A program made the translations under genes and the position numbers. The notes below the pieces were generated by a model. The model saw only the letters and a program-made list of their open reading frames with translations, made no database searches and was not told where the DNA came from. Below, piece after piece: positions 193 through 62,651 of a stretch of DNA of 64,000 nt (positions are counted from its first letter, which is position 1; every line of letters begins with the position of its first letter). This DNA is from Kiritimatiellia bacterium (GTDB lineage: Bacteria; Verrucomicrobiota; Kiritimatiellia; CAIQIC01; Lenti-01): positions 67,600-131,599 of the forward strand of contig JAFXQI010000042.1 in NCBI GenBank assembly GCA_017527155.1, given 5' to 3'.

Positions 193-1068
193 CTAGCGCA
201 TGGGGGCGGGCGGGGCGACAAAAAACGCCGCCCGCGCCGCCTCCCGGCGCAAGGCTTCCTGCTTCGGCGGCAGGTCGCCCGCTTGCAGGAAATCCGCCAG
301 CTCGCGGCGGAGGTTGTCCGCCAGCGCGTCGTCGAGGGGCTTGCCCGTGCCGCGCCCCGGATGCGGCAGGCGCCGCAGGCCCAGTGCGCCGTCCACGTGC
401 GCTTGCAGGCGGCGGAAGTTCCAGTGGGTCCGCAGGAGGCGCCTGAGGTGGCGTCGCGCCGCCGCGTGCTGCGTCCGCAGGGCCGGCGGAATCTCCGCGG
501 CGGCGGCGGCTTCCGCGCCCGGCAGCAGCCACTCCAGCGGGAGGCGTTCCTCCAGTTGCAGGAGGGCGCGGAGGTGGACGGCGAGGCGCATGTAGCGCAT
601 GAGGGTCGAGTAGTTCATGCCCACGCGGTTGTCCTCCAGCCAGCCGCGGACGCCGCGGCCGCGGCCGCAGATGCGCTGGGCGCCGGTCGGCGAGACGGCG
701 TAGCGGTTGCCGCGGTCGAGCGTCGGCGCAAGGTCCGCCAGACGCGACCCGATCCGCAGGCGCACCGCCAGCGTGCGCGGGCGCTCTGCCGCGTCGGCGG
801 CCAACTCTTCCGGCGTCGGGATGCCGCGCAGGGAGGGCGAGGGCGGGCGCGGCGCCCGCAGGTGCGCGCGGCGGCGCAGCTCGGCGAGGACGGCGCGCCC
901 CGCCGTGTCGGCAATCCAGCCGCCCAGCGCCGCCGCCGAGAGGGCCGCGACGCCCGCGAGGGCGGCGGGCGCGAGGATGGGCAGGGCCAGGGCGCCGACG
1001 TAGGCGCGGGTGATGTCGCCGGCGATGCCGGCGGCCTCGCGGAGGAGGTGTTTCGTCGTGTTTTTCAT
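193..1068 (-). CDS. Hypothetical membrane-anchored protein, paralog family copy 1 (N-terminal TM helix, Pro-rich linker, possible HTH-like segment)
   Basis: ORF 193..1104 (-). Start chosen at MKNTT (1068) because it is the start shared with the two paralogs at 17386..18255 and 47711..48571 (about 70 % aa identity). Alternatives are ATG 1080 or TTG 1104. The hydrophobic stretch [28 protein letters not shown] is a predicted TM helix. The conserved block [24 protein letters not shown]...[30 protein letters not shown] is shared. The antisense + ORF 157..1392 is R/Q-rich junk. Confidence 0.55.
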
Positions 1069-1130
1069 GGCGCGGAGCATGGGGGAGAACGGCCGGGATG
1101 TCAAGGATTTTTCCTATGTGCAAAAGTGGG
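1069..1130 (-). promoter_or_regulatory. Conserved upstream element of the paralog family, copy 1: TTGACA-N17-CATGCT-N7-ATG plus an upstream A-tract block
   Basis: In gene orientation the sequence reads CACTTTTGCACATAGGAAAAATCCTTGACA-TCCCGGCCGTTCTCCCC-CATGCT-CCGCGCC-ATG. The same architecture is found upstream of copy 2 (18256-18318) and copy 3 (48572-48632). Confidence 0.35.
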
Positions 1131-3110: not shown

Positions 3111-3602
3111 ATGAATGGCATGGATACGAACGTGGAAAGCGATGGGTTCTTTCCGGCAGGACGGACGGAGAGGATCGTGAGCCGGTCGGCGGAGGAGACG
3201 CGGGCGGTGGCGGCGCGGTTGGCGTCGGAATGCCCGGACGGGGCGCTGGTGTGCCTGCACGGGGACCTGGGTGCCGGCAAGACGTGCTTCGTGCAGGGGC
3301 TGGCGCGGGCGCTGGGCATCCGGCGTCCGGTGGGGAGCCCGACCTTCACGCTCGTCAACGAGTACCGGGGAACGCGGGGGCTGGCGCACATCGATCTGTA
3401 CCGGATCCGGGGGGCGGCGGACGCGTTCAGCCTGGGCTTGGAGGACTATCTCCAGCATTACCCGGGAATCGTCGCGATCGAGTGGGCGGAGAGGGCGCTG
3501 GATTTCCTGCCGGAAGATGCCTGGCACGTGCGATTGACGCCGGGCAAGGCGGAAGGGGAGCGGGTGGTGGAAATCGCGCGGCCGGGGCGGTCAAGGGGAT
3601 AG
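3111..3602 (+). CDS. tsaE: tRNA threonylcarbamoyladenosine biosynthesis ATPase TsaE
   Basis: MNGMD...LHGDLGAGKTCFVQGLARALGI...SPTFTLVNEY matches TsaE/YjeE (Walker A GDLGAGKT, SPTF motif). Start at M28 of ORF 3030..3602. Confidence 0.75.
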   Translation: MNGMDTNVESDGFFPAGRTERIVSRSAEETRAVAARLASECPDGALVCLHGDLGAGKTCFVQGLARALGIRRPVGSPTFTLVNEYRGTRGLAHIDLYRIRGAADAFSLGLEDYLQHYPGIVAIEWAERALDFLPEDAWHVRLTPGKAEGERVVEIARPGRSRG

Positions 3603-4283
3603 GGTTCCGTCCCGGAGGGTGAGGCGGAGGGCGGAGGAGGGGGCGTTCCAGGCGGGGTGGTGGGTGACGAGAAGGAGGGTGGTGCCGGCGCGGTTGAGGT
3701 CGGCGAAAAGGTCCATGGTGCGGGCGGCGGTATCGGGGTCGAGGTTGCCGGTGGGTTCGTCGGCGAGGAGGAGGGTCGGGGGATGGGCGATGGCGCGGGC
3801 GATGGCGACGCGCTGCATTTCGCCGGCGGACAGGAGATGCGCGGGCTGGCGGGCCTTGTGGGCGAGTCCGACGCGATCGAGGGCGGCCAGGGATTTCCGG
3901 CGGGCTTCGGCGGCGGGCGTGCCGAGATAGCGGAAGCGGAGTTCGACGTTGGCGAGGGCGGAGCGGCCGGGGACGAGGCAGAATTTCTGGAAGACGGTTC
4001 CGACGGCGGTCTTGCGGAGGGCGGTGCGGTCGCGGTCGGGGAGGGTCGAGACGTCGCGGCCGTCGAAGAGGAAGGTTCCGGCGTCGGGCGGGAGGAGGAG
4101 GCCGGCGACCATGAGGAAGGTGGTCTTGCCGGAGCCGGAGGGGCCGGTGACGACGGCATAGGCGCCGCGGGGGAGGGAGAGATCGATGCCGCGCAGGATT
4201 TCGACGTCGCGGCCGTCGGCGGCGCGGAAGCGCTTTTTCACGCCCTGCATGGAGAGGGCGGGGGTGTCGGCGGGGGGCGGCAT
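3591..4283 (-). CDS. ABC transporter ATP-binding protein (LolD/FtsE/MacB-type), no permease gene adjacent
   Basis: MPPPADTPALSMQGVKKRF...VTGPSGSGKTTFL...LSAGEMQRVAIARAI...LLLADEPTGNLD contains Walker A, the ABC signature and Walker B. The start ATG shares one base with the ruvC stop. Confidence 0.7.
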   Translation of the reverse strand: MPPPADTPALSMQGVKKRFRAADGRDVEILRGIDLSLPRGAYAVVTGPSGSGKTTFLMVAGLLLPPDAGTFLFDGRDVSTLPDRDRTALRKTAVGTVFQKFCLVPGRSALANVELRFRYLGTPAAEARRKSLAALDRVGLAHKARQPAHLLSAGEMQRVAIARAIAHPPTLLLADEPTGNLDPDTAARTMDLFADLNRAGTTLLLVTHHPAWNAPSSALRLTLRDGTLSP

Positions 4284-4783
4284 CAGATGGGGGTGGCGGG
4301 GAAGTAGGTGTGGTTGGTCTGGAGGTGGCAGAGGGCGAGGGCCATGGCGTCGGTGGCGTCGTCGGGCGGGGTGTCCTCGAGGGCGAGGATGGAGGCGACC
4401 ATGCGGGCGACCTGGTCCTTTGGAGCGGCGCCCCAGCCGGTGAGGTTCTGCTTGGCGGAGCGGGGGGAGTATTCGTAGACGGGGACGCCGGCGACGGCGC
4501 AGGAGGAGATGGCGACGCCGCGGACTTCGCCGAGGACGAGGGCGGTCTTGCCGTTCTTGAAGTAGAATCCGCCTTCCATGGACGCGGCGGCGGGGGCGTG
4601 CACGGCGAGGAGTTCGTCGATGCGGTTGCGGATGGCGCGGAGGCACTCGGAGTGCGCGGCCTTGGGGGGCATCTTGACGACCTCCCAGTGGAGGCAGCGC
4701 ATGACGGAGCCGGCCGCTTCGATGACGGCCAGGCCGGTGCCGCGGAGGGAGGCGTCGATACCGAGGACGATGGTGGAGGGCAT
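4283..4783 (-). CDS. ruvC: Crossover junction endodeoxyribonuclease RuvC
   Basis: MPSTIVLGIDASLRGTGLAVIE... carries RuvC catalytic-fold motifs over 166 aa. Confidence 0.85.
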   Translation of the reverse strand: MPSTIVLGIDASLRGTGLAVIEAAGSVMRCLHWEVVKMPPKAAHSECLRAIRNRIDELLAVHAPAAASMEGGFYFKNGKTALVLGEVRGVAISSCAVAGVPVYEYSPRSAKQNLTGWGAAPKDQVARMVASILALEDTPPDDATDAMALALCHLQTNHTYFPATPI

Positions 4784-4801: not shown

Positions 4802-6013
4802 TCAGTCCACGCGGCAGAGGAAGCCTTTGAGGTAGGACGTTTCCGGGGCGCCGAGGGCCACCGGGTGGTCCGCGCCGGGGCCGAGCGCCTCCAGGATGCG
4901 GACGGATCGTCCGGCGTCGTGGGCGGCCCAGCCGAGCATTTCGAGGAAGGTGTCGGCTTCGACGAGGCCCGAGCAGGTGAAGGTCGCCAGGTAGCCGCCG
5001 GGACGGAGGAGTTTCAGGGCGAGGAGGTTGATGTCCTTGTAGGCTCTCAACCCTTTTTGGAGGCCGCCGCGGGAGGTGACGAGGCGGGGCGGGTCGAGGA
5101 CGATCAGGTCCCAGCTTTCGCGGCGGTCGCGGGCCTGGCGGAGGCGGGTGGGGACGTCGGCTTCTTCGTAGGCGACGGGGGTGCCGCCGGGGTTGGCTTC
5201 CTGGTGGCGGCGGGCGAGGGCGAGGGCGGGTGCCGAGGAGTCCCAGCCGATGACGCTTTTCGCCCCCGCGTGCGCGGCGCAGACTTCGAAGGCGCCGGTG
5301 TAGCAGTAGGCGGAGAGGACGTCGCGTCCGCGTGCGATGGCGGCCACCTTGCGGCGGTTTTCGCGCTGGTCGAGGTAGAAGCCGGTCTTCTGCCCGGCGT
5401 CGGGCGCGGAGAAGAAGCGGAAGCCGTTTTCGCGGAATTCGATTTCGGCGGGGGCGTCGTCGCCGCCGAGGTCTTCGGAAAGCCCCTCGCGGCGCACGGC
5501 GTCGGGGTCGGCGCGGACGAGGACGCGGTCGGCGGCGCAGGTTTCGCGGAGCGATGCGGTGACGCACGGCAGCCAGCGCTCCCAGGCCTTGCCGCCTACG
5601 TGCAGGACGAGCGTGCCGTCGTACTGGTCTGCCACCAGCCCGCTCAGGCCGTCGGCTTCGGAAAACACCATCCGCCACGCGGTCGTGTCCTTCCACTCGG
5701 CGCGCGTGCCGTAGAGGTCGTGGCGGAGGGCGGCGGCGGAACGGATGCGGTCGCGCAGGAAGTCCTCGCCAAGAATGGCATCGGGGGCGCGCGTGAGGAC
5801 GCGGACGCACAGGTCGGCGTCCGGGTTCCAGAGTCCGGCGGCGATCCAGGCGCCGTCGGCGGCGTACACGTCGGCGATGGCCCCGGCGGGCGCGTCGCGG
5901 TCGATGCCGTCCACCGCGCCGGAGAACACCCACGAGCTGCCGTGGCGCACGGGACGGTCGCGTCCGGGCAGCAGGCGCACGCGGATTTCCGCCGCTTCGC
6001 GGGGGGTGCTCAT
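4802..6013 (-). CDS. rlmI: Class I SAM-dependent rRNA (cytosine-C5) methyltransferase with PUA domain (RlmI-like)
   Basis: Start [15 protein letters not shown] at 6013 (M74 of ORF 4802..6232). The N-terminal PUA-like region is followed by the methyltransferase core ([29 protein letters not shown]). The start overlaps the rfbA stop by 4 nt. Confidence 0.65.
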
Positions 6014-6894
6014 TTCGCGGCCTCGGCGCCGTCGGCGAGGGCGAGGAGGTAGCGGCCGTATTCGTTCTTGGCCATCAGCTCGCCGCGTTCGCGGAGGGTG
6101 TCTTCCTTGATCCAGCCGGCGCGGAAGGCGATTTCCTCCAGGCACGCGATCTTGAGCCCCTGGCGCTCTTCGATGGTCTGCACGAAGTTCGACGCCTGGA
6201 GCAGCGATTCGTGCGTGCCCGTGTCGAGCCACGCGAAACCGCGGCCGAGCAGCTCGACGCGGAGCTTGCCGTCGCGGAGGTAGCTGCGGTTGAGGTCGGT
6301 GATTTCGAGTTCGCCGCGCGGCGAGGGCTTGAGGGCGGCGGCGCGGTCGCAGGCTTCGCCGTCGTAGAAGTAGAGGCCGGGGACGGCGTAGTTGGACTTG
6401 GGGCGCTTGGGTTTTTCTTCGAGGCCGAGGACCTTGCCTTCCGCGTCGAACTCGACGACGCCGTACCGCTCCGGGTCGCGCACGAGGTAGCCGAAGACGA
6501 GCCCGCCTTCCTTGAGCTTGCCCGCGCGCCGCAGGATGCCGGTGAGGCCCATTCCGTGGAAGATGTTGTCGCCCAGCACCAGCGCCGACGGCGACCCGCC
6601 CACGAAGTCGCGCCCGATGATGAACGCCTGCGCCAGCCCTTCGGGACGCGGCTGTTCGGCGTACTCCAGCCGCAGTCCCACGCCGCTGCCGTCGCCGAGC
6701 AGCGTGCGGAAGCGCGGAAGGTCCTCCGGCGTGCTGATGACCAGGATGTCGCGGATGCCGGCCAGCATCAGCACCGACAGCGGATAGTAGATCATCGGCT
6801 TGTCGTACACCGGCAGCAGCTGCTTGCTGATGCCTTGCGTGATGGGATAGAGGCGGGTTCCGCTTCCGCCGGCGAGGACGATGCCTTTCATCAT
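6010..6894 (-). CDS. rfbA: Glucose-1-phosphate thymidylyltransferase
   Basis: [51 protein letters not shown] is the canonical RfbA/RmlA N-terminus; 294 aa. Confidence 0.85.
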
Positions 6895-6926
6895 GGGGGG
6901 GCTCCTGGGTTTTCGGTGGGGGGCTG

Positions 6927-6982
6927 TTTTTCTAGATTTCTAGATAACTAGATTCCTAGGAAACTAGATTCTCTAGATTTCC
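6927..6982. repeat. AT-rich CTAG palindromic repeat cluster, locus L1 (tctagatttctagataactagattcctaggaaactagattctctagatttcc)
   Basis: A CTAGAT-rich island lies in an otherwise roughly 70 % GC context. It overlaps the hisC TAG stop and sits 33-88 nt upstream of the rfbA start. It is related to L2 (27463-27493), L3 (34463-34496) and L4 (53320-53356). Confidence 0.5.
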
Positions 6983-8085
6983 TTGAGGGCTTCCGCCAGC
7001 GCCGCGAGGCACGTCGCGTTCTCCTCCTCGGTGCCGATGCTGATCCGCACGTAGTCCGGCAGGCCGAACCCGGCGAGGGGCCGCACGATGACCTTGCGCT
7101 TCGTCATGGCGGCGGTGAGGGCGGCGGCCTTCTCGAAGCGGAACATGATGAAGTTCGTGACCGTTTCGACCGGGTCGAGGCCGAGCGCGCGCAGGCCGTC
7201 GGTCATCTGCTTCTGGCCGGCGATGAGGAGCTTGCGCGTGGACGAAATGTATTCCTGGTCCCCGATGGCCGCGACCGCCGCCGCCTGCGCCATCGCGTTG
7301 ACGTTGAACGGCTGCCGGACCTTGTTGAGCAGGTCGATGCCGTCCGGCTGCGCCATCGCGTAGCCGACGCGCAGCCCGGCCAGCCCGTACGCCTTGGAGA
7401 ACGTCCGCAGCGTGATGACGGGCTTCTTGCCGGCCTTGACGTGCTTGACGGTGTCCACCTGGCGCTCCGGCGGGACGAGCTCCATGTACGCCTCGTCGAA
7501 GACCGTCACCACGCGGTCCGGCACCGCGTCCACGAACGCGTCCACCTGCTCCTGCGTCAGGATGGTCCCCGTCGGGTTGTTCGGGTTGCCGATGACCACG
7601 ACCTTGGTGTTGGGCTTGATGGCGGCGAGCATCGCGTCCGGGTCGTGGGTCATGCCGTTCATGGGCACGAGCGTGCAGGTGCAGCGGAAGAGCTCCGACA
7701 CCAGCTTGTACACGACGAACGACCGCTGCGACGCCACCAGGTCGTCGCCCTCCCACATGAAGGCGTTGCAGATCAGCACCGCGTGCTCGTTGCAGCCGCA
7801 GCCGAGCATCACCATGTCGTCGCCGATGCCGTAATGCCGCGCGATCGCCTGCCGCAGGTAGTACGAGCCGCCGTCGGGGTAGCGGTTCATGTGCTCCACC
7901 GCGTCGTGCATGGCCTGCTTCGCCTTCGGCGAGGGGCCCCAGGCGTTCTCGTTCGACGCCAGTTTCACGATGCCCGACGCGTCCGCCAGCCCCAGCTCGC
8001 GCGCCACCTCCTCGATGGGGCGGCCCGGCTGGTAGGGTTTCTGCGCGGCGATCCAGTTGTTCGCGATGGTTCCGAAAAGACTCAT
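6973..8085 (-). CDS. hisC: Histidinol-phosphate aminotransferase
   Basis: 370 aa; NENAWGPSP, GNPNNPTG and TFSKAYGLAGLRVGY (PLP-lysine region) are typical of HisC. Confidence 0.85.
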   Translation of the reverse strand: MSLFGTIANNWIAAQKPYQPGRPIEEVARELGLADASGIVKLASNENAWGPSPKAKQAMHDAVEHMNRYPDGGSYYLRQAIARHYGIGDDMVMLGCGCNEHAVLICNAFMWEGDDLVASQRSFVVYKLVSELFRCTCTLVPMNGMTHDPDAMLAAIKPNTKVVVIGNPNNPTGTILTQEQVDAFVDAVPDRVVTVFDEAYMELVPPERQVDTVKHVKAGKKPVITLRTFSKAYGLAGLRVGYAMAQPDGIDLLNKVRQPFNVNAMAQAAAVAAIGDQEYISSTRKLLIAGQKQMTDGLRALGLDPVETVTNFIMFRFEKAAALTAAMTKRKVIVRPLAGFGLPDYVRISIGTEEENATCLAALAEALKEI

Positions 8086-8191
8086 GGTGTGTGCTCCTTT
8101 GGTTTGTCAAAATGCGGTTTCAGAAAACTCGATGGATTCGATGGTTTCGAAAAAATCGAAAGAATCGGAACGGTTGCCGCTTGAACGGCGG

Positions 8192-9040: not shown

Positions 9041-9959
9041 CTTCAACCTTCTCCTCTTCCGCTTCCGCATCGGCGCCCGCATCCGCGTCCACCGCCGGGG
9101 CTCCGTCCGCGAGCGGCAACGTGCCGGTTTCCGGCGCGGGGGCGGCGTTGAGCTTCTTGCGGCGCCGCAGGATGGCGGCCGTCTGCGGGTCCTCGGCCGG
9201 GGCCTCGTCCTCGGGCTTCGCGCCCTCGGGCGGGATGTCCCGGTGCTCGATGAAAATCTCCCCGTACGTCTCCGACTGCACCGCGCGCGCCTGCCGGAGG
9301 CGGATCAGCTCCAGCAGCGCCAGGAACGTGCACGCGATCTCGTTGCGCGAGCGCATCTTGTCGAGCATCCCCGACAGCGAGAACCGCCGCTCCCGGCGGA
9401 GCCGGAGCCCCAGCGACTCGATCTTGTCGGCGACCGTGTAGCGTTCGGCGAAGATTTCCCGGAGCTCCTCGTCCTTGACCTTCTTGAGCGCCTCGTTGAA
9501 CGCGTTGATCAGGTCGAACAGCCCCACGTCGTGGAGCGCCACCTCCGGCTCGCGGCCGAGGACCGCCTCCGTCCCCTCGCGGCCGAAGATGTCCTCCCGC
9601 CGCACCTCCAGCTCCTCCAGGTGGAGCGCCGCGTCCTTGAACTTCTTGTACTCGACCAGCTGCCGGACCAGATCCCACCGCGGATCCTCCTCCTCGGCCT
9701 CCTCCTCGGGCCGGACCTCGGCGGGCAGCAGCATCCGGCTCTTGATCATCATCAGCGTGGCGGCCATGACCAGGAACTCCCCCGCGACGTTGAGGTCGAG
9801 CCGCTTCATCATCTCGAGGTACTCGATGTACTGCCTGGTGACGCTCTCCATCGGGATGTTGCTGATGTCCAGCTCGTCCTTCTTGATGAGGTACAACAGC
9901 AGATCGAGAGGTCCCTCGAAGACCTCCAGCTTGACCTTGTATTCCTCGTTCCTGTCCAT
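9018..9959 (-). CDS. scpA: Segregation and condensation protein A
   Basis: Start MDRNEEYKVKLEVFEGPLDLLLYLIKKDELDI (M149 of ORF 9018..10403) is the ScpA signature. The 3' end overlaps the scpB start by about 22 nt. Confidence 0.75.
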   Translation of the reverse strand: MDRNEEYKVKLEVFEGPLDLLLYLIKKDELDISNIPMESVTRQYIEYLEMMKRLDLNVAGEFLVMAATLMMIKSRMLLPAEVRPEEEAEEEDPRWDLVRQLVEYKKFKDAALHLEELEVRREDIFGREGTEAVLGREPEVALHDVGLFDLINAFNEALKKVKDEELREIFAERYTVADKIESLGLRLRRERRFSLSGMLDKMRSRNEIACTFLALLELIRLRQARAVQSETYGEIFIEHRDIPPEGAKPEDEAPAEDPQTAAILRRRKKLNAAPAPETGTLPLADGAPAVDADAGADAEAEEEKVEDESDGNP

Positions 9960-14854: not shown

Positions 14855-14970
14855 CCTCCGCCCGTTGTTTCCCAGTGCGGACGCGCAGAAGCGCGTCCCT
14901 CCCCGTGGAGAGCGCACCGGGAGGGTCGCGCTTCCGCGCGACCATGTGGTAGGGAAGCGTTCGGGAAGCT
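14855..14970 (-). repeat. GC-rich multi-hairpin interspersed element, copy A (inverted orientation)
   Basis: The reverse complement matches copies at 37515-37620, 40537-40640 and 62652-62848: ttctg(c/t)(a/g)gcttccc...ccaca(a/t)ggtcgcgcggaagcgcgaccctcccgg..ccacggggagggacgcgcttctgcgcgtccgc. It lies between the convergent ettA and folK. Confidence 0.6.
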
Positions 14971-15062
14971 GCAGAAAAACGTAAACCGATCCAACGCGCT
15001 CGGGGCGCAAATCCTGCTCGTGTGTCGGGCGATCTCTCCGGGCGAGCCGTTTTGCCCCCGCT

Positions 15063-17385: not shown

Positions 17386-18255
17386 CTACAGTCCGGGAGG
17401 CAATCCCGGCCCGGGCGGCAGGAACCCCGTCAGCACCTCTGTCCTCAATGCCTCCAGCTTCGGCGGCAGGTCGCGCGCCTGCAGGAAATCCACCAGCTCG
17501 CGGCGGGCGTTTTCCAGCATTACTTCGTCGGGCGGCTTCCCTCCGGCGCCCCCCGGACGCGGCAGGCGCCGCAGGCCCAGCGCGTCGTTCACGTGCGATT
17601 GCAGGCGGGTGAAATTCCAGTGCGCCCGCATCAGGCGCGAGAGGCGGCGTTTCGCCGCCGCGTATTGCGCCTGCAACACCGGGGGAACCGCTGCGGAAGC
17701 CTCCTCGCCGGGCAGCAACCATTCCAGCGGAAGCCGTTCGTCCAGGGCCAGAAGGGCGCGGAGGCGGACGGCGAGGCGCATGTAGCGCATGAGGGTCGAG
17801 TAGTTCATCCCGATGCGGTTGTCGGCCAGCCAGCCCCGGACGCCGCGGCCACGGCCCCGGATGCGTTTTGCGCCCGAAGGAGAGATATCGTAGAGGTTGC
17901 TGCGGTCGAGCGTCGGCGCCAGGTCCGCCAGGCGCGACCCGATCCGCAGGCGCACCGCGAGCGTGCGGGGCCGTACCGCCGCGTCGTCGGCGAACTCCTC
18001 CGGCGTCGGCGTCCCGCGCAGCGACGGCGAGGGCGGCCGCGGCACACGGAGACGGGTCCGGCGGCGCAGCTCGGAGAGGATGGCCTGTCCGCTGTCGGCC
18101 AGCCAGCTGCCGAGGGCGGCCGCCGAGAGCGCGGCGATCCCCGCGACGGCGACGGGCAGGACCACGGGCAGGGCAAGAGGCAGGGCGTAGGCGCGGGCGA
18201 CGTCGCCGGCAATCCCGGCGGCCTCGCGGAGGGTGTATTTGACCGTGTTGTTCAT
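17386..18255 (-). CDS. Hypothetical membrane-anchored protein, paralog family copy 2
   Basis: Start [23 protein letters not shown] (M61 of ORF 17386..18435). About 70 % identity to copies 1 and 3. The stop lies 105 nt upstream of dapA. Confidence 0.55.
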   Translation of the reverse strand: MNNTVKYTLREAAGIAGDVARAYALPLALPVVLPVAVAGIAALSAAALGSWLADSGQAILSELRRRTRLRVPRPPSPSLRGTPTPEEFADDAAVRPRTLAVRLRIGSRLADLAPTLDRSNLYDISPSGAKRIRGRGRGVRGWLADNRIGMNYSTLMRYMRLAVRLRALLALDERLPLEWLLPGEEASAAVPPVLQAQYAAAKRRLSRLMRAHWNFTRLQSHVNDALGLRRLPRPGGAGGKPPDEVMLENARRELVDFLQARDLPPKLEALRTEVLTGFLPPGPGLPPGL

Positions 18256-22094: not shown

Positions 22095-23636
22095 ATGACC
22101 CTGCGCGAATTGGAAAAGCTTGTAGCCGACGGCGAGGGCGAAACCGTCGAATTCAAGGAGACGACCGGACAGCGCGGCGACGCCTGCCGGACCCTGTGCG
22201 CTTTCCTGAACGGAAAGGGCGGGACCGTCGTTTTCGGTGTTTCCCGCAAAGGGGTGTTGCAGGGGCAGGCCGTTTCCGACGCCACGAAGCGCGATTTGTT
22301 CGAGGTTTTCGACCGGTTCGAACCGGCGGCCGACATTGCGACCGAGTGGGTCCGCGTGGACACGATCCGCCAAGCCATCGTCTGCCGCGTGGAGCGCGGC
22401 AACATGCGCCCCTATCTCCACGACGGGAAACCATACCGGCGGGTCCAGTCCTCCACGACGGTCATGTCGCAGGAGGAATACGAGCGGATGCTTTCCGAAC
22501 GCGGCGGATTCAGGAGCGATTGGGACATGCAGCCCGCCCAGCACCTCTCCATGGAGGACCTCAATCTGGATGAAGTCGCGAAAACCGCCCGCATGGCCAT
22601 CGCCGCAGGGCGACTGGCTTCCAACGCCGACACGACCAATCCCTCCACGCTCCTGCGGAAGTTCCGCGTCATGCGCGACGGTCGTCTTCTCAACGCCGCC
22701 GCCGTCCTGTTCGGCACCCCCGACATGTTTTATCCCCAATGCCAAATCAAGATGGCGCGTTTCAAGGGGAGCGGCCGGAACGAATTCGGCGACGAACGTC
22801 GCGAAAGCGGGAACGTCTTCGCCCTCATGGACGCCGCCATGCAGTTCTGCTTCAAGCACTTGAACCTGTCCGGGAAAGTGGAGGGATTTCTCCGTGAGGA
22901 GCGTCTCGAATTGCCGCCGGAGGCCCTGCGCGAGGCCATCCTGAACGCTCTCGCCCACCGCCAGTACTCCCGCACCGCCACTGTTTCCCTGGCGATTTAC
23001 GACGACCGCGTGGAAATCACCAGCCCCGGCGGCTTGCCGCCGGGCAAGACCGTCGGCACCCTGATGGAGGAACACGAATCCGAACCCCGCAACACGCTCG
23101 TCGCCCAAGTGATGTATCTCCGAAAAGCCATCGAGATGTGGGGCCGGGGTTTCTCGCTCATGGCCACGGAATGCGCACGCTACGCCGTTCCCGCGCCGCT
23201 GGTGGCGGAAACCCCGGACGGTTTCGTGAAGGTCACCTTCCAACGCCCCGCTTCTGGCACCCCGGTGGGCCCGGAAGTTGGCACAACAGGCGGGAAATTT
23301 GGCACAACACCCCCGGAAGTTGACACAACAGGCGGAAAAGCTGGCACAACACCCCACGAGCCCGACCCGTTGCTTTCCAAAATTCAGTGGACCCTGGATA
23401 CCTGTTCCCCCGTTCTCCGAAAGAATGTGCGCCACAATGCCGAACAGGTGCTCCTAGAGATTGCCCGAGACCCCGTCGTGACCATCAAGGAGATTGCAGG
23501 CAAGACATCCCTCTCCCGGACAACGGTCAACAACATTCAGACACTGTTGAGGAATTTCGGCATCCTCTACCGGATCGGGGGGCATTTCGGCGGACGCTGG
23601 CTCGTGGTTTGGAAAGGCACTTCCAAAACTCCCTGA
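22095..23636 (+). CDS. AlbA_2 (divergent AAA / Schlafen-like) plus HATPase_c_4 plus C-terminal winged-HTH protein (so-called RecG-like putative transcriptional regulator family)
   Basis: Start MTLRELEKLVADGEGETVEFKETTGQRGDACRTLCAFLNGKGGTVVFGV (M148 of ORF 21654..23636). The HATPase_c_4 signature ILNALAHRQYS...DDRVEITSPGGLP is present. GC is about 60 % against roughly 72 % in the flanks. An internal in-frame 42-bp x2 repeat is listed separately. Confidence 0.65.
   Translation: MTLRELEKLVADGEGETVEFKETTGQRGDACRTLCAFLNGKGGTVVFGVSRKGVLQGQAVSDATKRDLFEVFDRFEPAADIATEWVRVDTIRQAIVCRVERGNMRPYLHDGKPYRRVQSSTTVMSQEEYERMLSERGGFRSDWDMQPAQHLSMEDLNLDEVAKTARMAIAAGRLASNADTTNPSTLLRKFRVMRDGRLLNAAAVLFGTPDMFYPQCQIKMARFKGSGRNEFGDERRESGNVFALMDAAMQFCFKHLNLSGKVEGFLREERLELPPEALREAILNALAHRQYSRTATVSLAIYDDRVEITSPGGLPPGKTVGTLMEEHESEPRNTLVAQVMYLRKAIEMWGRGFSLMATECARYAVPAPLVAETPDGFVKVTFQRPASGTPVGPEVGTTGGKFGTTPPEVDTTGGKAGTTPHEPDPLLSKIQWTLDTCSPVLRKNVRHNAEQVLLEIARDPVVTIKEIAGKTSLSRTTVNNIQTLLRNFGILYRIGGHFGGRWLVVWKGTSKTP
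23261..23344 (+). repeat. In-frame tandem repeat (4 x 21 bp, equivalently 2 x 42 bp) inside the AlbA_2/HATPase_c_4 gene
   Basis: The units are gttggcacaacaggcgggaaa / tttggcacaacacccccggaa / gttgacacaacaggcggaaaa / gctggcacaacaccccacgag. They encode EVGTTGGKFGTTPP-EVDTTGGKAGTTPH in the linker before the C-terminal wHTH. Confidence 0.5.
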
Positions 23637-26386: not shown

Positions 26387-27475
26387 GTGCAAGACCTGCT
26401 CATCCTCGGCATCGAATCCTCGTGCGACGAGACGGCGGCGGCCGTCGTGCGCGGCGGCCGCGAGGTGCTCTCCTCGGCGGTCATCAGCCAGATCGCCCAG
26501 CACCGGCCCTACGGCGGCGTCGTGCCGGAAATCGCCTCGCGCGGCCACGTGGAAGCGTTTCCGGCGGTGGTATCGGAAGCGATGGCGAACGCCGGGGCGG
26601 GGTGGGGGGACCTCGACGCCATCGCGGTGACGTACGGCCCCGGACTGGTCAGTTCGCTCCTCGTGGGCCTCTCCGGCGCGCGCGCGCTGGGACAGGCCGT
26701 CGGCAAGCCGGTATGGGGCGTCAACCACATGGAAGGCCACCTGGCGGGCATGTTCCTCGACCCCGCCACGCCGCCGCCGGAGGAGCTGTGCCCCGCGGTG
26801 GTCCTGCTGGTGTCGGGCGGCCACTCCTACGTCGTGGAGATGCGCGCCGCCGGCGACTACCGCCTGCTCGGCCAGACCATCGACGACGCGGCCGGCGAAT
26901 GCCTCGACAAGGGCGCCAACCTGCTCGGTCTCGGCTATCCCGGCGGACCCGCCATCGAGCGCGCCGCCGCGGGCGGCGACCCGGCCTACGTCCGCTTCCC
27001 GCGCGGCATGGAACACGCCAAGGCGCGCACCACCGAGGACGGGCTCGATCTCGCCTACTGCTTCAGTTTCAGCGGTCTCAAGACCTCCCTCCTCCAGCGC
27101 CTCCGCACCCATCCCGACGACCTGCCCTCGCACCTCGCCGACCTCGCCGCGTCCTACCAGGAAGCCGTCATGGAATCGCTCGCCAAGCGCGCCGACCGGG
27201 CCCTCAAGGCGACCGGCGCGCGCACGCTCGCCTGCGTCGGCGGCGTCGCCAGGAACCGCGTCCTGCGCGCCAAGCTCGAAGCCATCGCGCGCCGCCGCCG
27301 CGCCGTCCTGCGGCTCGCCCCGCTGGCCTACTGCACCGACAACGCCGCCATGATCGCCGCCGCCGCCGGACTCCGCGCCCGCGCCGGCCTCCCGAATCCG
27401 CCGGCCCTCGAAGCCGACCCCAGCCTCCCGCTGGTCGAAGAGCCGGGGGGAGTTGCCGGGGGTCTAGATATCTAG
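26387..27475 (+). CDS. tsaD: tRNA N6-adenosine threonylcarbamoyltransferase TsaD
   Basis: GTG start; MQDLLILGIESSCDETAAAVV...HMEGHL matches the Kae1/TsaD family. Its final codons plus the TAG stop (L-D-I-*) are encoded by the palindrome ctagatatctag. Confidence 0.85.
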   Translation: MQDLLILGIESSCDETAAAVVRGGREVLSSAVISQIAQHRPYGGVVPEIASRGHVEAFPAVVSEAMANAGAGWGDLDAIAVTYGPGLVSSLLVGLSGARALGQAVGKPVWGVNHMEGHLAGMFLDPATPPPEELCPAVVLLVSGGHSYVVEMRAAGDYRLLGQTIDDAAGECLDKGANLLGLGYPGGPAIERAAAGGDPAYVRFPRGMEHAKARTTEDGLDLAYCFSFSGLKTSLLQRLRTHPDDLPSHLADLAASYQEAVMESLAKRADRALKATGARTLACVGGVARNRVLRAKLEAIARRRRAVLRLAPLAYCTDNAAMIAAAAGLRARAGLPNPPALEADPSLPLVEEPGGVAGGLDI

Positions 27476-27493
27476 GTTCCTAGGTATCTAGGA
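27463..27493. repeat. AT-rich CTAG palindromic repeat, locus L2 (tctagatatctaggttcctaggtatctagga)
   Basis: Contains the perfect 12-bp palindrome ctagatatctag and the ctaggtatctagg core shared with L4. It spans the tsaD stop and ends 17 nt before the rlmN ATG. Confidence 0.5.
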
Positions 27494-27509
27494 TTTGCCC
27501 CCCCCCCGC

Positions 27510-28577
27510 ATGAAAACCGCTTTGCAAGGCCTCTTTCCCGACGAACTGCGGGACGTGTGCACCGGCGCGGGATTCCCTGCGTTCCGGGCCAAGCAGCTCT
27601 GGCAGTGGCTGCAGGGCCGCCATGCACTCTCCTGGGACGCGATGGCCAACCTCCCGCGCGCCTTGCGCGGTGCGCTGGACGCCGGGTGGACGCCGGCCCC
27701 CGTCCGTCCCCTCCGCGAAGCCGGCGACCCCGGCGGCACCCGCAAGTGGCTGCTGGGACTCGACGACGGCGAATCCATCGAGACCGTCCTCATTCCCGCG
27801 CGCGACCGCAAGACCGTGTGCGTCTCCACCCAGGTTGGCTGCAAGATGGCCTGCGCCTTCTGCGCCAGCGGCAAGGGCGGCTGGGTCCGCAACCTCGGCG
27901 CCGGCGAAATCGTCGCGCAGGTCCACCACGTCGCCGCGCTGTCGGGCGGGCGCCCCAACAACGTCGTGTTCATGGGCATGGGCGAACCCTTCGACAACTA
28001 CGACGCCGTCCTGCGTGCCGTCCGCCTCCTGAACCATCCCGACGGACTGGCCATCGGCGCCCGAAAGATCACCCTGAGCACCAGCGGACTCGTGCCCGGC
28101 ATCCGGCGTCTGGCGACCGAAGGCCTGCAGGTCGAACTCTCCGTATCCCTCCACGCCCCCGACCCGGAGCGCCGCCGCCGCCTGATGCCCGTCGAAGGCC
28201 GCTGGCCGATGGACGAGCTCCTCGCCGCCTGCCGCGAGTACACGGCGGCGACCAAGCGCATCGTGACCTTCGAGTACACCCTCGTCCGCGGCTTCAACGA
28301 TTCCGCCGCCGACGCCGCGCAGCTGGCGGCCCGCCTGCGCGGCTTCCCGTGCCGCGTCAACGCGATCCCGCTGAGCCCCGTCGCCGAATTCGACGGCGAG
28401 GCGCCCTCCCGCGAGACCTGCCACGCCTTCCTCGACGCCCTCCTCCGCCACGGCATCGAAGGTACCCTCCGCGAATCCAGGGGCAAGGGCGTTTCCGCCG
28501 CCTGCGGCCAGCTCCGCCGCGGCGCCATGCGGGAGAAAACCGATCCCGGCGGCCCAGCCCGTCCGTCCCGCCCGTGA
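27510..28577 (+). CDS. rlmN: 23S rRNA / tRNA (adenine-C2) methyltransferase RlmN (radical SAM)
   Basis: MKTALQGLFPDELRDV... has the radical-SAM motif CKMACAFCASG and the C-terminal Cys. Confidence 0.85.
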   Translation: MKTALQGLFPDELRDVCTGAGFPAFRAKQLWQWLQGRHALSWDAMANLPRALRGALDAGWTPAPVRPLREAGDPGGTRKWLLGLDDGESIETVLIPARDRKTVCVSTQVGCKMACAFCASGKGGWVRNLGAGEIVAQVHHVAALSGGRPNNVVFMGMGEPFDNYDAVLRAVRLLNHPDGLAIGARKITLSTSGLVPGIRRLATEGLQVELSVSLHAPDPERRRRLMPVEGRWPMDELLAACREYTAATKRIVTFEYTLVRGFNDSAADAAQLAARLRGFPCRVNAIPLSPVAEFDGEAPSRETCHAFLDALLRHGIEGTLRESRGKGVSAACGQLRRGAMREKTDPGGPARPSRP

Positions 28578-33715: not shown

Positions 33716-34456
33716 TCAGCTGGGGGGATAACGCCGGGCGAGGAGGCGGTTGACGGGATAGAGGAGCAGCGGGAGCAGGGAGAGGGAGAAAGCGGGTTGG
33801 AGGGGCGGCGGGGCGGGGAGGAGGAATGCGCAGAGGCAGAGCAGGGTCTGCAAGGGGAGGAGCAGACGGAGGAGCAGCCCGATGTGGGCGGGGGTGATGC
33901 GGGAGCGCGGGTCGGCTTCGCGGCGGGCGAGGGCGGTGACAACGGCGATGTAGAGTCCGAGGAGGGCGGCGGCGGCGAGGGGCTCGGGCGTCCGGGCGGC
34001 GGGGCCGGCACCGAGGAGGAGGTCGAGGGAGCGGCAGAGACCCATGACGAGGGGGCCGAGGATGGCGGATTTCTTGGCGGCGAAGTCGTAGAGGAGGATG
34101 GCGAGCGCGAGGATGGCGGCGACGGGGAGGGCATGGGCGGGGATGGCGAGCAGGAGGCCGAGGAGGAGAAGAAGGACGCCGGCCAGCCCGACGGCGGCAG
34201 GCGAAACGGCGCCGGAGGGGATGGGCCGTTCGGGGCGCTCCCGGGCATCGATGGCGGCATCGGCGAGGTCGTTGAAGAGGAGGCCGGCGGCGTACAAGCA
34301 CGCGGAGGCGGCGATGGCCGCAAAGAGCCGGAGGGTGGCCACCGGATCGGGTGCGGGGACGAGGAGAATCCCCGAGAGGAGGGCCCCGGCGATGGGGTCG
34401 CCGGGGAGCGTCAGGAGGTTCGGGAGGCGGAGGAGGCGGAGCCAGGGAGAGGTCAT
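33716..34456 (-). CDS. UbiA family prenyltransferase
   Basis: A polytopic membrane protein with LFNDLADAAIDARERPERPIPSG (the NDxxDxxxD motif). Confidence 0.7.
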   Translation of the reverse strand: MTSPWLRLLRLPNLLTLPGDPIAGALLSGILLVPAPDPVATLRLFAAIAASACLYAAGLLFNDLADAAIDARERPERPIPSGAVSPAAVGLAGVLLLLLGLLLAIPAHALPVAAILALAILLYDFAAKKSAILGPLVMGLCRSLDLLLGAGPAARTPEPLAAAALLGLYIAVVTALARREADPRSRITPAHIGLLLRLLLPLQTLLCLCAFLLPAPPPLQPAFSLSLLPLLLYPVNRLLARRYPPS

Positions 34457-34462
34457 GGGGGG

Positions 34463-34496
34463 AAACCTAGAAACCTGGATGTCTAGATATCCAGAA
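34463..34496. repeat. AT-rich CTAG palindromic repeat, locus L3 (aaacctagaaacctggatgtctagatatccagaa)
   Basis: Contains the tctagatatc core in a near-palindrome tctagata/tccaga. It begins about 6 nt upstream of the UbiA-family ATG, in the divergent intergenic region with the AKR gene. Confidence 0.45.
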
Positions 34497-37264: not shown

Positions 37265-37514
37265 GATCCATCTCCATTTGGTCTTTTCATCCACTCAACC
37301 AAATCCCCGCCCCGATGGAAACCTTTTTCCGCGCCGGAAGGGGAGGGGGGGCAGGACAAGACCATGGCGTTGGATCGGGCGGCCGTCCTCGGATGGGTTT
37401 CCCGGACGGCCTACCGGAGCGGGGCCGTCACGGAGGTCGCTGCGCCGCATCCCGTGCCGTGCCGATCCCGACTCCGTCGTCCGGTGGAGCGAGCTCGCCT
37501 GGAGCGGGTAAAGT

Positions 37515-37620
37515 TATTCTGTGGCTTCCCAGACGTTTCCCAACCACAAGGTCGCGCGGAAGCGCGACCCTCCCGGGGTGCGCTCTCCACGGGGAGGGAC
37601 GCGCTTCTGCGCGTCCGCCC
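37515..37620 (+). repeat. GC-rich multi-hairpin interspersed element, copy B
   Basis: ttctgtggcttcccagacgtttcccaaccacaaggtcgcgcggaagcgcgaccctcccggggtgcgctctccacggggagggacgcgcttctgcgcgtccgc. Hairpins are ggtcgcgc-GGAA-gcgcgacc, ccctccc...gggaggg and ggacgcgc-TTCT-gcgcgtcc. Confidence 0.6.
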
Positions 37621-40423: not shown

Positions 40424-40536
40424 AACAGCGGAGAATGGCCCCCCACGGGCTCCTCTCCGTGTCGTGTCCGGCTCTCCACTCCCACGGGAGGGATCGTGAG
40501 CGGACGCCGACGAGGGCGGGCTAGAGCGGTTTGCGT

Positions 40537-40640
40537 CATTCTGTGGCTTCCCAGGCGTTTCCCAACCACAAGGTCGCGCGGAAGCGCGACCCTCCCGCTG
40601 TGCTCGCCACGGGGAGGGACGCGCTTCTGCGCGTCCGCGA
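40537..40640 (+). repeat. GC-rich multi-hairpin interspersed element, copy C
   Basis: ttctgtggcttcccaggcgtttcccaaccacaaggtcgcgcggaagcgcgaccctcccgctgtgctcgccacggggagggacgcgcttctgcgcgtccgc. Confidence 0.6.
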
Positions 40641-47710: not shown

Positions 47711-48571
47711 TCACGGAAGAACCGTACCGCTCGCCCATCCGGCCAGCGCCTCCCGGCGCAGTGCTTCCAGTTTCGGGGGCAGGTCGCCGGCCTGCACGAA
47801 ATCCGCCAGCTCGCGGCGGGTGTTCTCCGCCAAGGTCTCGTCTAGGGGCTTGCCTCCGCCGCGTCCCGGACGCGGCAGGCGCCGCACCCCCAGCGCCCCG
47901 TCCACATGCGATTGCAGGCGGCTGAAGTTCCAGTGTGCCCTGAGCAGGCGCGCGAGGCGGCGTCGGGCCGCCGCGCAATGCGCCTGCAACGCCTCCGGCA
48001 CGGCCGCGGAAGCCTCCGCGCCCGGCAGCAACCATTCCAGCGGCAGCCGTTCGTCCAGACCCAGTAGCGCGCGGAGGCGGACGGCGAGACGCATGTAGCG
48101 CATGAGGGTCGAGTAGTTCATTCCGACGCGGTTGTCCTCCAGCCAGCCCCGGACGCCGCGGCCGCGGCCGCGGATGCGCTTTGCGCCCGTCGGCGAGATG
48201 TCGTAGTGGTTGCCGCGGTCGAGCGTCGGTGCCAGGTCCGCCAAGCGCGACCCGATCCGCAGGCGCACCGTCAGGGTCCGCGGGCGCACCGCCGCATCGG
48301 AGGCGAATTCCTCCGGCGTCGGCGTCCCGCGCAGGGAGGGCGATGGCGGGCGCGGCGCCCTCAGACGCGTCCGGCGGCGCAATTCGGAGAGGATGGCGCG
48401 TCCGGTGGCTCCGGCAATCCAGCTGCCGAGGGCCGCCGCCGAGAGGGCCGCGACACCGGCGAGGGCGGCGGGGACGAGGACGGGGAGGGCCAGGGAGCCG
48501 ACGTAGAACCGGGCGGTGTCGCCGGCGATGCCGGCAGCCTCCCGGAGAGCGTATTTGCAGGTGTTGTTCAT
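47711..48571 (-). CDS. Hypothetical membrane-anchored protein, paralog family copy 3
   Basis: Start [23 protein letters not shown] (M28 of ORF 47711..48652). About 70 % identity to copies 1 and 2. The stop lies 135 nt upstream of deoA. Confidence 0.55.
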   Translation of the reverse strand: MNNTCKYALREAAGIAGDTARFYVGSLALPVLVPAALAGVAALSAAALGSWIAGATGRAILSELRRRTRLRAPRPPSPSLRGTPTPEEFASDAAVRPRTLTVRLRIGSRLADLAPTLDRGNHYDISPTGAKRIRGRGRGVRGWLEDNRVGMNYSTLMRYMRLAVRLRALLGLDERLPLEWLLPGAEASAAVPEALQAHCAAARRRLARLLRAHWNFSRLQSHVDGALGVRRLPRPGRGGGKPLDETLAENTRRELADFVQAGDLPPKLEALRREALAGWASGTVLP

Positions 48572-48632
48572 GGGCGGGAGCTTGGGGAAGGGACGGTGGA
48601 AAGTCAAGGATTTTTCCTGTGTGCAAACGTGA
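48572..48632 (-). promoter_or_regulatory. Conserved upstream element of the paralog family, copy 3
   Basis: Gene orientation reads CACGTTTGCACACAGGAAAAATCCTTGACT-TTCCACCGTCCCTTCCC-CAAGCT-CCCGCCC-ATG. Confidence 0.35.
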
Positions 48633-52906: not shown

Positions 52907-53308
52907 TCAGCCGACGTGGAGGCGGAGGGTGGTGACGGCTTTGGGGCCGAAGCGGGATTGGAGGCGGCGGAGGAGTTCTTGCTGGAGGGGGCCGCGGAGT
53001 TCCATCAGGAGCATGGGGTGGTCGAGGCGGAGGGTCAGGGTGCCTTTTTCGAGCTTGATGGGCTCCGTCAGGCGGCAGAGGGGCGCGCCCGCGATGTCCG
53101 GCCAGGCGTTCTGGACGGCGCGGAGGTCGGCGGCTTCCTTGAGGTGGAGGCTCTCCAGGGCCGCGGGGATGAGGTCGGAAAGGGGGCGGACCGGAGCGGA
53201 GGGGTAGGGGGGGATGGCGTCGGGGCCCAGGCCGTAGCGCTCGCAGTGGACTTGCCATTGGCCGCGGGTGCGGTGGAGGTAGCGGTTGCGGCGGTCGGAG
53301 TCGTTCAT
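52907..53308 (-). CDS. DUF721 domain protein (DciA-like)
   Basis: 133 aa; ...LKEAADLRAVQNAWPDIAGAPLCRLTEPIKLEKGTLTLRLDHPMLLMELR matches the DUF721 pattern. Confidence 0.5.
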   Translation of the reverse strand: MNDSDRRNRYLHRTRGQWQVHCERYGLGPDAIPPYPSAPVRPLSDLIPAALESLHLKEAADLRAVQNAWPDIAGAPLCRLTEPIKLEKGTLTLRLDHPMLLMELRGPLQQELLRRLQSRFGPKAVTTLRLHVG

Positions 53309-53319
53309 GGGGGGGGGGG

Positions 53320-53356
53320 CTAGGTATCTAGGTTTCTAGGTATCTAGGTTTCTAGG
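53320..53356. repeat. AT-rich CTAG palindromic repeat, locus L4: tandem (ctaggtatctaggttt) x2 plus ctagg
   Basis: ctaggtatctaggtttctaggtatctaggtttctagg. It overlaps the TAG stop of the TrmH-family gene and ends about 12 nt upstream of the DUF721 gene ATG. Confidence 0.55.
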
Positions 53357-62444: not shown

Positions 62445-62651
62445 GCTTTCGATTTTACCCCCACGCGCGCGCGGAGGAAAGCCGAAAAAGCGGGGAGGAA
62501 TGGAGCGGAGGGCATCCCGCTTTGTGCAAGGTGCAAGCCCGGAAGCGGAGAGGGAGGACGGGGGAAAACTCCGATTGGTCCGATGGCCCGGGATGCGGGA
62601 GAAACGCGCGAAGCCGGCGGTTCCAGCGGGGAATGGGGGGCTTCCTCTTTT

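Follow-up and report, generated by a model that had tools for sequence, protein, structure and literature searches.

Why should a GC-rich bacterium carry short AT-rich islands of phased CTAG tetramers where its genes end? The question arose from a 64-kb stretch of Kiritimatiellia contig JAFXQI010000042.1 (positions 67,600 to 131,599; GC content, 69.3%), here called the window, in which a preliminary description had noted four such islands, L1 to L4. We find that these islands most likely belong to a lineage-wide family of intergenic repeats that is dynamic rather than a gene switch. Arrays directly follow gene ends, often starting at the TAG stop codon itself, and are nearly absent from divergent regions. 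They are also gained, lost, resized, and reshuffled between close relatives. Our preferred interpretation, which we hold tentatively, is that the arrays are a self-propagating, stop-anchored minisatellite family with a CTAG core, tolerated after gene ends because it stops translation. No description of such CTAG arrays was found in the literature that we searched.

Four phased CTAG arrays in the window

CTAG occurs 23 times in the window, against an expectation of 178 occurrences by base composition and 60 under a Markov model, and 17 of the 23 fall in the four clusters, in an 8-bp register. A search for CTAGN4CTAGN4CTAG with at most one mismatch gave nine matches, all within L1 to L4, and the same search gave none in 100 dinucleotide shuffles of the window. 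Tandem Repeats Finder detected head-to-tail units, as expected of a minisatellite, at periods of 8 and 16 in L1 (period 8, 6.5 copies), L2 (3.8 copies), and L4 (4.6 copies, with period 16 at 100% match). No tetramer other than CTAG formed a period-8 array in the window. The four phased islands are thus real, with the sequences first quoted for them, and the motif is not scattered through the window at random at the frequency expected from composition.

CTAG had also been described as an avoided tetramer. It is indeed scarce, but mostly because TA is scarce. Intergenic DNA without arrays held no CTAG in 5.4 kb, close to the 1.9 to 2.6 expected under Markov models, and we therefore rejected any special avoidance outside the arrays. 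In 10 kb of flank beyond the window, a single CTAG was present.

Window arrays supply stop codons

Gene calls confirmed the gene names proposed at L1, L2, and L4 and that of UbiA at L3, and the arrays do adjoin gene boundaries, forming a real family at gene junctions. The gene order is aminotransferase to NTP_transferase at L1 (minus strand), TsaD to RlmN at L2, and SpoU to DciA at L4 (minus strand); L3 lies at the UbiA start. As had been noticed, the upstream stop codon is part of the repeat in three cases: L1, L2, and L4 supply the stop codons of the aminotransferase, TsaD, and SpoU genes, each a TAG inside the array.

L3 had been taken for a divergent junction between UbiA and AKR genes. 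The AKR gene starts 320 nt away, and the array is preceded by a conserved 26-amino-acid open reading frame (ORF) on the minus strand. L3 is therefore not truly a divergent promoter region; it is a degenerate copy following this small conserved upstream ORF. The N terminus of the ORF is kept in a relative (L220; three-digit L numbers denote loci outside the window), where the ORF encodes 37 amino acids and takes its TAG stop from the first array unit. The 26-amino-acid ORF upstream of ubiA may be a leader peptide.

The stop codons follow from the geometry of the repeat. Since 8 mod 3 is 2 and TAG lies on both strands of CTAG, three or more units at an 8-bp period stop all six frames. Any ORF entering an 8-bp array therefore ends there, which accounts for the otherwise rare TAG stop of the upstream gene inside the repeat. 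Synthetic all-frame stop linkers such as CTAGCTAGCTAG use the same principle, in that a palindromic CTAG at a period not divisible by three stops six frames. The CTAG arrays resemble them in ending every ORF that enters and differ in being natural, in their 8-bp period, and in including some 9-bp arrays that stop one frame per strand.

The array family in other genomes

When each GTDB species was represented by a single genome and scanned for four CTAGR units in phase, at least 120 loci were returned. Among the matches listed, to which the counts in this paragraph refer, many were perfect microsatellites in unrelated taxa. Imperfect arrays with variable spacers were concentrated in bacteria of the Planctomycetes-Verrucomicrobia-Chlamydiae (PVC) group, namely, in Kiritimatiellae (RGIG3636, with five loci, RGIG3447, and RGIG4421), in Victivallales and Lentisphaeria (including RUG12186, with seven loci), and in related metagenome-assembled genomes (MAGs). 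Arrays with at least 75% distinct spacers accounted for 55% of those in PVC genomes, 23% of those in other genomes, and 7% of those in viral contigs, and loci with imperfect PVC arrays had few CTAGs outside the arrays.

Viral contigs gave almost only perfect microsatellites, and we rejected a viral origin. Imperfect CTAG arrays were also present in some rumen Bacteroidales, Flavobacteria, and Gemmatimonadales, with other preferences in the flanking bases. An ENA metagenome contig (ERZ27256869 k141_654836) matches the window exactly, and the source species was seen in several ruminant-gut assemblies; named UbiA homologues about 50% identical came from Kiritimatiellia, Lentisphaerae, Verrucomicrobia, and Opitutae, and the RpoD-like protein was 60% identical to its counterpart in a Kiritimatiellae MAG. 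We place the species among uncultured PVC bacteria, probably in Kiritimatiellota.

Orthologous junctions gain, lose, and resize arrays

Comparison with orthologous junctions, which the preliminary description had proposed, revealed that array presence and absence alternate between relatives at L2, L3, and L4. At the L2 junction, one relative (L127; 92% nucleotide identity to the window) has no array, and its tsaD and rlmN genes overlap as GTGA. A second (L128; 82%) has five units where the window has four, and a third (L129; 85%) has the decayed series CTAG, CTAG, CTGG, CTGG, CTAG. At the L4 junction, L216 (97.0% nucleotide identity) has five units of equal total length, differing from the window at 4 of 16 spacer bases and at none of 20 core bases. 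Arrays are absent from this junction in L213 and L217 (87 to 88% protein identity), where the 3′ end of a T/C-rich spacer aligns with the last unit and C-run of the window, and in L214 (58% protein identity), which has one CTAG in 17 kb. At the L3 junction, the ortholog of the decaying window copy in L220/L221 (89% protein identity) is an intact array of four units, and L218 (87%) and L219 (78%) carry none.

Similar turnover was found elsewhere in the family. Two Victivallales genomes whose HisF proteins are 99% identical (flanks, 93 to 98% nucleotide identity) have adjoining arrays of 8 and 4 units with unrelated spacers. One-unit or two-unit duplications, visible as ABAB alternation or adjacent duplicate spacers, occur in L4, L071, L126, and L107. 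A Victivallales MAG (L023) carries a 53-unit array after an intrinsic terminator (positions 3972 to 4400), with a 16-bp higher-order pattern, CTAGAAGC-CTAGNNTG, and a 12-unit array (about 5240 to 5340) that begins at the TAG stop of the adjacent gene and has a 9-bp period throughout. Periods of 7, 9, and 10 bp were found inside Lentisphaeria arrays. Unit number thus differs between relatives (4 versus 5, 8 versus 4, and an array of 53), and recent duplications are present, as in a minisatellite.

Arrays that come and go at orthologous junctions might instead be traces of mobile elements, either a miniature inverted-repeat transposable element (MITE)-like cassette inserting at stop codons or the excision footprints or target duplications of a CTAG-targeting transposon. 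The spacer consensus is palindromic and spacers vary from 3 to 5 nt in length, as imprecise footprints would leave them, and runaway arrays could be explained by each new unit adding a target. We nevertheless consider this origin very unlikely. Neither terminal inverted repeats nor target duplications nor shared flanks were seen, gene calls and Pfam searches of the flanks revealed no transposase beside any array, and the spacers are too diverse for one footprint; none of 139 spacers pooled from 33 arrays of the window and related genomes is GATC, GTAC, or GCGC, all symmetric combinations. Unlike copies of a MITE, the four window arrays are of unequal length, have different spacers, and lack common flanks. 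At its 3′ end, the L4 module shows homology to the native spacer found in array-less relatives, which we take as evidence of an origin in situ. Of the stop-targeting miniature element first suggested for the islands, only the anchoring to stop codons is seen.

Two of the array-less relatives, L218 (about 3480 to 3600) and L219 (about 9840 to 9880), have two to four copies of a 19-bp palindrome, TTTTCCAnnnAnTGGAAAA, upstream of ubiA, which look operator-like.

Arrays favor gene 3′ ends and avoid divergent regions

We surveyed the context of the arrays by calling genes from GC content at third codon positions and checking about 50 flanking proteins with Pfam. Among the matches listed, about 20 array junctions were co-directional, about 10 were convergent, and at most 1 was divergent; background junctions in the same loci numbered 89, 31, and 25, respectively. 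The difference between 10 convergent and 1 divergent junctions against this background was significant (P = 0.012; length weighted, P = 0.026). At co-directional junctions, the array was nearer the upstream stop than the downstream start in 10 of 12 cases. The upstream gene ends in the first unit at L1 and L4 of the window, as do TsaD of L128 and L129, the small ORF of L220, ClpB of L035, and genes in L107, L082, L087, and L023. Hand-curated real genes placed the stop in units one, two, and three at about 11:6:1-2 (P of about 0.03); an automated count gave 11:7:4 and is noisy, since antisense ORFs in GC-rich DNA pass its filter.

The genes beside the arrays are unrelated housekeeping genes (infB-rbfA, clpB-ligA, prmC, hisI, gyrA, and tsf), and several arrays sit within classical operons. 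Convergent placements include GH77 with Orn/Lys/Arg decarboxylase, ClpB with an epimerase-like gene, a hypothetical gene with RpoD, and HisF with a tRNA. With no functional theme among the flanking proteins annotated with Pfam, we rejected a specific regulon, and the convergent placements, unrelated neighbors, and arrays inside operons led us to reject a general role as promoter or regulon operator.

The idea of an intercistronic promoter, with an AT-rich island whose repeated TAGNNT hexamers act as −10-like elements for the downstream gene, had been raised for the window arrays and deserves separate mention. All four lie 10 to 37 nt before an ATG, they form TA-rich islands in intergenic DNA where TA is otherwise scarce, and in three lower-GC loci (L081, L115, and L035) the array occupies a −35/UP position upstream of an extended −10. 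As a general role this fails. No sigma-70 consensus (−35/−10) was found at the window arrays, the approximately 10 arrays between convergent genes need no promoter, and divergent regions, where promoters belong, are depleted of arrays. Lower-GC relatives have canonical promoters or terminators of their own beside the arrays: in L009, L082, L020, and L126, the array is followed by an intrinsic terminator hairpin distinct from it and preceded by the stop codon, and in L071 and L023 it lies between a terminator and the next promoter. The L2 junction, moreover, is a coupled GTGA overlap without an array in a close relative. We judge a promoter or UP-like module to be the least probable of the explanations considered here.

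The same placements bear on a role in RNA, within the 3′ untranslated or intercistronic transcript. There the array could act as an all-frame ribosome stop, as a site for an oligomeric RNA-binding protein comparable to TRAP or HutP, or as hairpins altering mRNA stability, Rho access (through array plus C-run), or reinitiation. TRAP binds (G/U)AG repeats, and HutP binds UAG-N4 repeats. Arrays begin at or just 3′ of stop codons, and those of Victivallales lying between stop codon and terminator hairpin must be transcribed. Folded array RNAs were more stable than shuffles (z from −2.6 to −8.6), with the G-run and C-run of L2 pairing around its array, and RlmN, UbiA, and DciA combine a C-run with the lack of a Shine-Dalgarno sequence, where most genes have AGGAG. 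We think an RNA-level role improbable, all the same. Permuting the spacer order within each array made no difference to folding (mean z = 0.04, n = 26), by which we rejected selection of an RNA hairpin at the level of the whole array; the stability comes from the palindromic units. An RNA site at a co-directional junction would not need a full palindrome, some arrays follow a terminator and precede the next promoter (L071 and L023), 9-bp arrays hold all their TAGs in one frame, and turnover is high. No intrinsic terminator (GC-rich stem plus T-run) was found at the window arrays, and an Rfam scan of the window matched three tRNAs only, with nothing at the arrays.

Other short repeats occupy similar positions. 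In Victivallales L007, L020, L082, and L126, the stretch separating the CTAG array from the terminator hairpin holds short stop-rich repeats of a second family (GCTTTAAGC, GCTTTTAGC, and CATAAGCC); in L007, a 23-nt hairpin, TAGCGACGGCGTCTCGCCGTTGG, also occurs twice in tandem after a stop codon. Another lineage, whose RlmN is about 48% identical, has short arrays of 7-bp period directly 3′ of the rlmN stop (L150, about 2619; L152, about 3535; L156, about 3491 and 3538; L155, about 3504). Their units are TCTAAAN (five copies), AGACNNN, and CAATGAA, and the TCTAAAN array is kept in three related contigs.

A symmetric unit with an invariant core

In the 139 pooled spacers, position 1 was a purine in 91% and position 4 a pyrimidine in 88%, with positions 2 and 3 mostly A or T. 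The resulting unit, W-Y-CTAG-R-W, has two-fold symmetry and lacks polarity; it joins an invariant palindromic core (YCTAGR) to a free AT-rich spacer of 4 nt (sometimes 3 to 6). A consistent orientation of units on the G-rich strand gave a weak signal and was rejected, the unit being symmetric. The plus strand of the whole window is itself strongly skewed (G, 39.3%; C, 29.9%); intergenic regions are mostly G rich on that strand regardless of gene direction, and of 74 runs of at least six G or C, almost all are G on the plus strand.

Such a unit would suit a dimeric protein that reads YCTAGR and binds cooperatively, one dimer per unit, acting generically at transcription-unit ends as a roadblock, an insulator, or a topological or nucleoid site. 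The symmetry, the invariant core with free spacers, and a period of mostly 8 bp would all be explained, as would a single unit consensus at all loci and across PVC genomes; diverged proteins would give the different flank preferences of other phyla. That some arrays stand at transcribed positions and others at untranscribed ones points to an action on DNA. The array-less relatives L127, L213, and L218 lack any CTAG at all, as might follow from loss of a trans-acting factor.

Two known systems share this architecture. The OF/parH sites of ParG on plasmid TP228 consist of 8 to 12 degenerate ACTC tetramer boxes with 4-bp AT-rich spacers, one dimer binding each box; the boxes are nonpalindromic, are tolerant of orientation, and occupy a single locus upstream of parFG (PMC3130281). 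The CTAG arrays likewise combine a tetramer box with a regular 4-bp AT-rich spacer (CTAG plus RWWY) at an 8-bp period. They differ in having a palindromic box and many chromosomal loci at gene 3′ ends. Gene calls and Pfam found no gene for a ribbon-helix-helix, ParA, ParF, or ParG protein beside the arrays. The metbox operators of MetJ are tandem, two-fold symmetric 8-bp boxes in 2 to 5 copies, AGACGTCT (PMC3228920). In another register the CTAG unit reads AGRWWYCT and shares their 8-bp tandem register and symmetry. Its center is WW rather than CG, so that it does not match AGACGTCT, and its arrays reach 53 units with variable period. CTAG arrays are not at methionine genes; their neighbors are unrelated housekeeping genes, and many arrays lie at 3′ ends. 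MetJ is known from gammaproteobacteria, unlike the PVC hosts of the CTAG arrays.

We regard a cooperative binding platform as unlikely. No candidate protein was found, sites are gained and lost at housekeeping operon junctions between near relatives, and the period ranges from 7 to 10 bp, with whole arrays at 9 bp. An array of 53 units goes far beyond what an operator needs, the neighboring genes have no functional theme, and anchoring to stop codons would have no reason. The symmetric unit is therefore compatible with the binding array for a dimeric regulator proposed at the outset, but fast turnover, variable period, the 53-unit array, and the lack of a gene theme leave that proposal disfavored. 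We are similarly doubtful of a broader version, in which a putative, widespread DNA- or RNA-binding factor of PVC and some Fibrobacteres-Chlorobi-Bacteroidetes group bacteria would cooperatively coat phased YCTAGR units and mark transcription-unit ends as a roadblock, insulator, or topological barrier, lineages that lost the factor having lost all arrays.

A self-propagating minisatellite as the favored reading

Fast gain, loss, and resizing, duplications, runaway arrays, a variable period, the lack of gene-specific logic, and confinement to harmless sites together fit a dynamic repeat family best. Arrays might grow and shrink by replication slippage or by mini-hairpin misalignment between self-complementary CTAG cores, CTAG-N3-5-CTAG being the minimal hairpin for such misalignment. 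Only units that keep the core would then multiply while spacers drift, so that the core would be maintained by molecular drive and not by selection on the organism. Arrays would persist where they do no harm, after stop codons and away from promoter-only regions; behind a stop codon, the TAGs that three or more units at an 8-bp period put in all six frames would make the arrays harmless. Some effects on the host are incidental. The arrays break the translational coupling seen in a relative (the tsaD/rlmN GTGA overlap), and they place an AT-rich, hairpin-prone island before rfbA, rlmN, ubiA, and dciA.

The closest known kinds are bacterial minisatellites and extragenic palindromes of the repetitive extragenic palindromic (REP)/bacterial interspersed mosaic element (BIME) type. 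With minisatellites, or variable-number tandem repeats arising by slipped-strand mispairing, the CTAG arrays share head-to-tail units, unit numbers that vary between relatives (4 versus 5, 4 versus 8, and up to 53), one- and two-unit duplications, and an intergenic location. Unlike them, the CTAG arrays share one palindromic core of 4 to 6 bp across genome and lineage with the rest of the unit free, have gene 3′ ends and stop codons as their anchor points, and have shown no copy-number variation within species. REP/BIME elements are imperfect palindromes of 20 to 40 bp with a GTAG or CGTC head, are linked to RAYT transposases, and are often regarded as selfish or domesticated (PMC3733652). Like them, the CTAG arrays are short, clustered, palindromic, and present in many copies after gene ends at convergent and co-directional junctions, with no gene-specific function; unlike them, they have an 8-bp unit in tandem register and no GTAG or CGTC head. 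No RAYT (TnpA-REP) transposase was present among the gene calls of the 64-kb window and its flanks.

Several observations sit badly with a self-propagating minisatellite. Slippage alone leaves unexplained that arrays throughout a genome of 69% GC, and throughout the lineage, should all have a CTAG core and spacers rich in A and T: no GGCC, GCGC, or CCGG arrays at period 8 occur in the window, and single TAG stops have GC-rich native contexts, unlike the array spacers. A protein site, too, would produce a conserved core and variable spacers. Drive does not account for a polar feature, the position of all four window arrays before a start codon with a C-run, nor for what seems to be a total lack of arrays in several close relatives. 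Arrays of 9-bp period keep all their TAGs in one frame per strand and give no six-frame stop, and the excess of stops in the first unit is no more than suggestive. Finally, same-species contigs (six for L2, plus those for L1 and L4) were identical except for one spacer single nucleotide polymorphism, so that the within-species variation in unit number expected of a minisatellite was absent from this small sample; the arrays are thus not hypermutable on short time scales. The uniform core, the array-less close relatives, and the C-run placement are the reasons that we keep the protein-coating reading alive.

If the arrays are self-propagating repeats, they offer a clean bacterial example of molecular drive, in which a palindromic core is kept by the copying mechanism itself. 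They would also rewrite gene ends, supplying stop codons, changing C termini, and uncoupling operon genes, and would be a practical warning for gene and operon annotation in uncultured gut PVC bacteria. If they are protein sites, they would represent a genome-wide system for marking gene ends in phyla where almost nothing is known of transcription-unit boundaries. Under either reading, the arrays are a simple sequence marker, since their presence or absence separates close lineages.

Anatomy of the four loci

The coordinates of the arrays and of the adjoining gene features are collected in Table 1. The distance from the last CTAG to the next ATG is 37 nt at L1, 18 nt at L2, 10 nt at L3, and 11 nt at L4, and a run of 6 to 11 C directly precedes the ATG in all four genes downstream of the arrays. 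Most genes of the organism have an AGGAG-type ribosome site, which RlmN, UbiA, and DciA lack.

Table 1. Positions of the CTAG arrays and adjoining gene features in the window
Feature	Position	Strand	Description
L1 array	6932-6976		Six CTAG units, one 9-bp step; spacers ATTT, ATAA, ATTC, GAAA, ATTCT
TAG stop of class I/II aminotransferase (6973-8085)	6973-6975	−	First L1 unit reached by the ribosome
Leader of NTP_transferase (rfbA-like; gene 6010-6894)	6892-6931	−	Sense strand, AAAAACAG-C6-ACCGAAAACCC-AGGAG-C7-ATG
L2 array	27464-27491		Four units; spacers ATAT, GTTC, GTAT; holds perfect palindrome CTAGATATCTAG
TAG stop of TsaD (26387-27475)	27473-27475	+	Within second L2 unit
C-run and start codon of RlmN (27510-28577)	27492-27512	+	GATTTG-C10-GC-ATG; no Shine-Dalgarno sequence
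L3 array, degenerate and decaying	34467-34494		CTAG, CTGG, CTAG, CCAG in 8-bp register; orthologous to intact four-unit array of L220/L221
UbiA start (gene 33716-34456)	34454-34466	−	GTTT-C6-ATG
Conserved small upstream ORF, 26 amino acids	34523-34603	−	MTIIAPHCR...; preceded by AAAGGA; upstream of ubiA
L4 array	53320-53355		Five units, (CTAGGTATCTAGGTTT)x2 + CTAG; exact 16-bp duplication
TAG stop of SpoU methyltransferase (53352-54233)	53352-53354	−	First L4 unit
DciA start (gene 52907-53308)	53306-53319	−	C11-ATG; run homologous to pyrimidine-rich leader CTTGCTTCCATCCC-ATG of array-less relatives

We rejected the possibility that the C-run is part of an inserted mobile cassette. The L4 run is homologous to the native pyrimidine leader of array-less relatives, and C-runs before ATG are present also at array-free genes, so that the C-run is best seen as native leader sequence. 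C-runs between ribosome site and ATG recur in this organism at genes without arrays. Just outside the window (L212, 18040 to 18081), the sequence leading into a T2SSF gene is AT rich, with one CTAG, and is followed by AAGGAG-A-C6-ATG. A second short phased array with a palindromic core, four units of TCGA at a 9-bp period, occupies positions 8129 to 8167, in an AT-rich region upstream of the aminotransferase gene.

Other repeats in the window

The window also contains a dispersed repeat of about 95 nt in five copies, at 14877 to 15002 (minus strand), 37490 to 37618, 40524 to 40638, 62648 to 62759, and 62759 to 62846. Two copies stand in tandem (Tandem Repeats Finder period 96, 97% match), and one ends in C8-ATG. 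Its invariant core has two hairpins, GGTCGCGC-GGAA-GCGCGACC and GGGACGCGC-TTCT-GCGCGTCC. Rfam returned nothing for the repeat, which could be a small RNA or an element of the REP type.

Three paralogous genes encode proteins of about 295 amino acids (193 to 1080, minus strand; about 17446 to 18183, minus strand; and about 47747 to 48631), with 81 to 83% nucleotide identity and no Pfam match. Each has cACTTTTGcAcAtAGGAAAAAtcCTTGAC about 20 nt before its start, resembling a promoter or operator. Lastly, an AlbA_2/HATPase_c_4 gene contains, at 23270 to 23355, two tandem copies of a unit of about 42 bp (90% match). The matching scaffold of another sample aligns in two blocks with an overlap of about 85 bp at this position, which suggests a copy-number difference between the assemblies.

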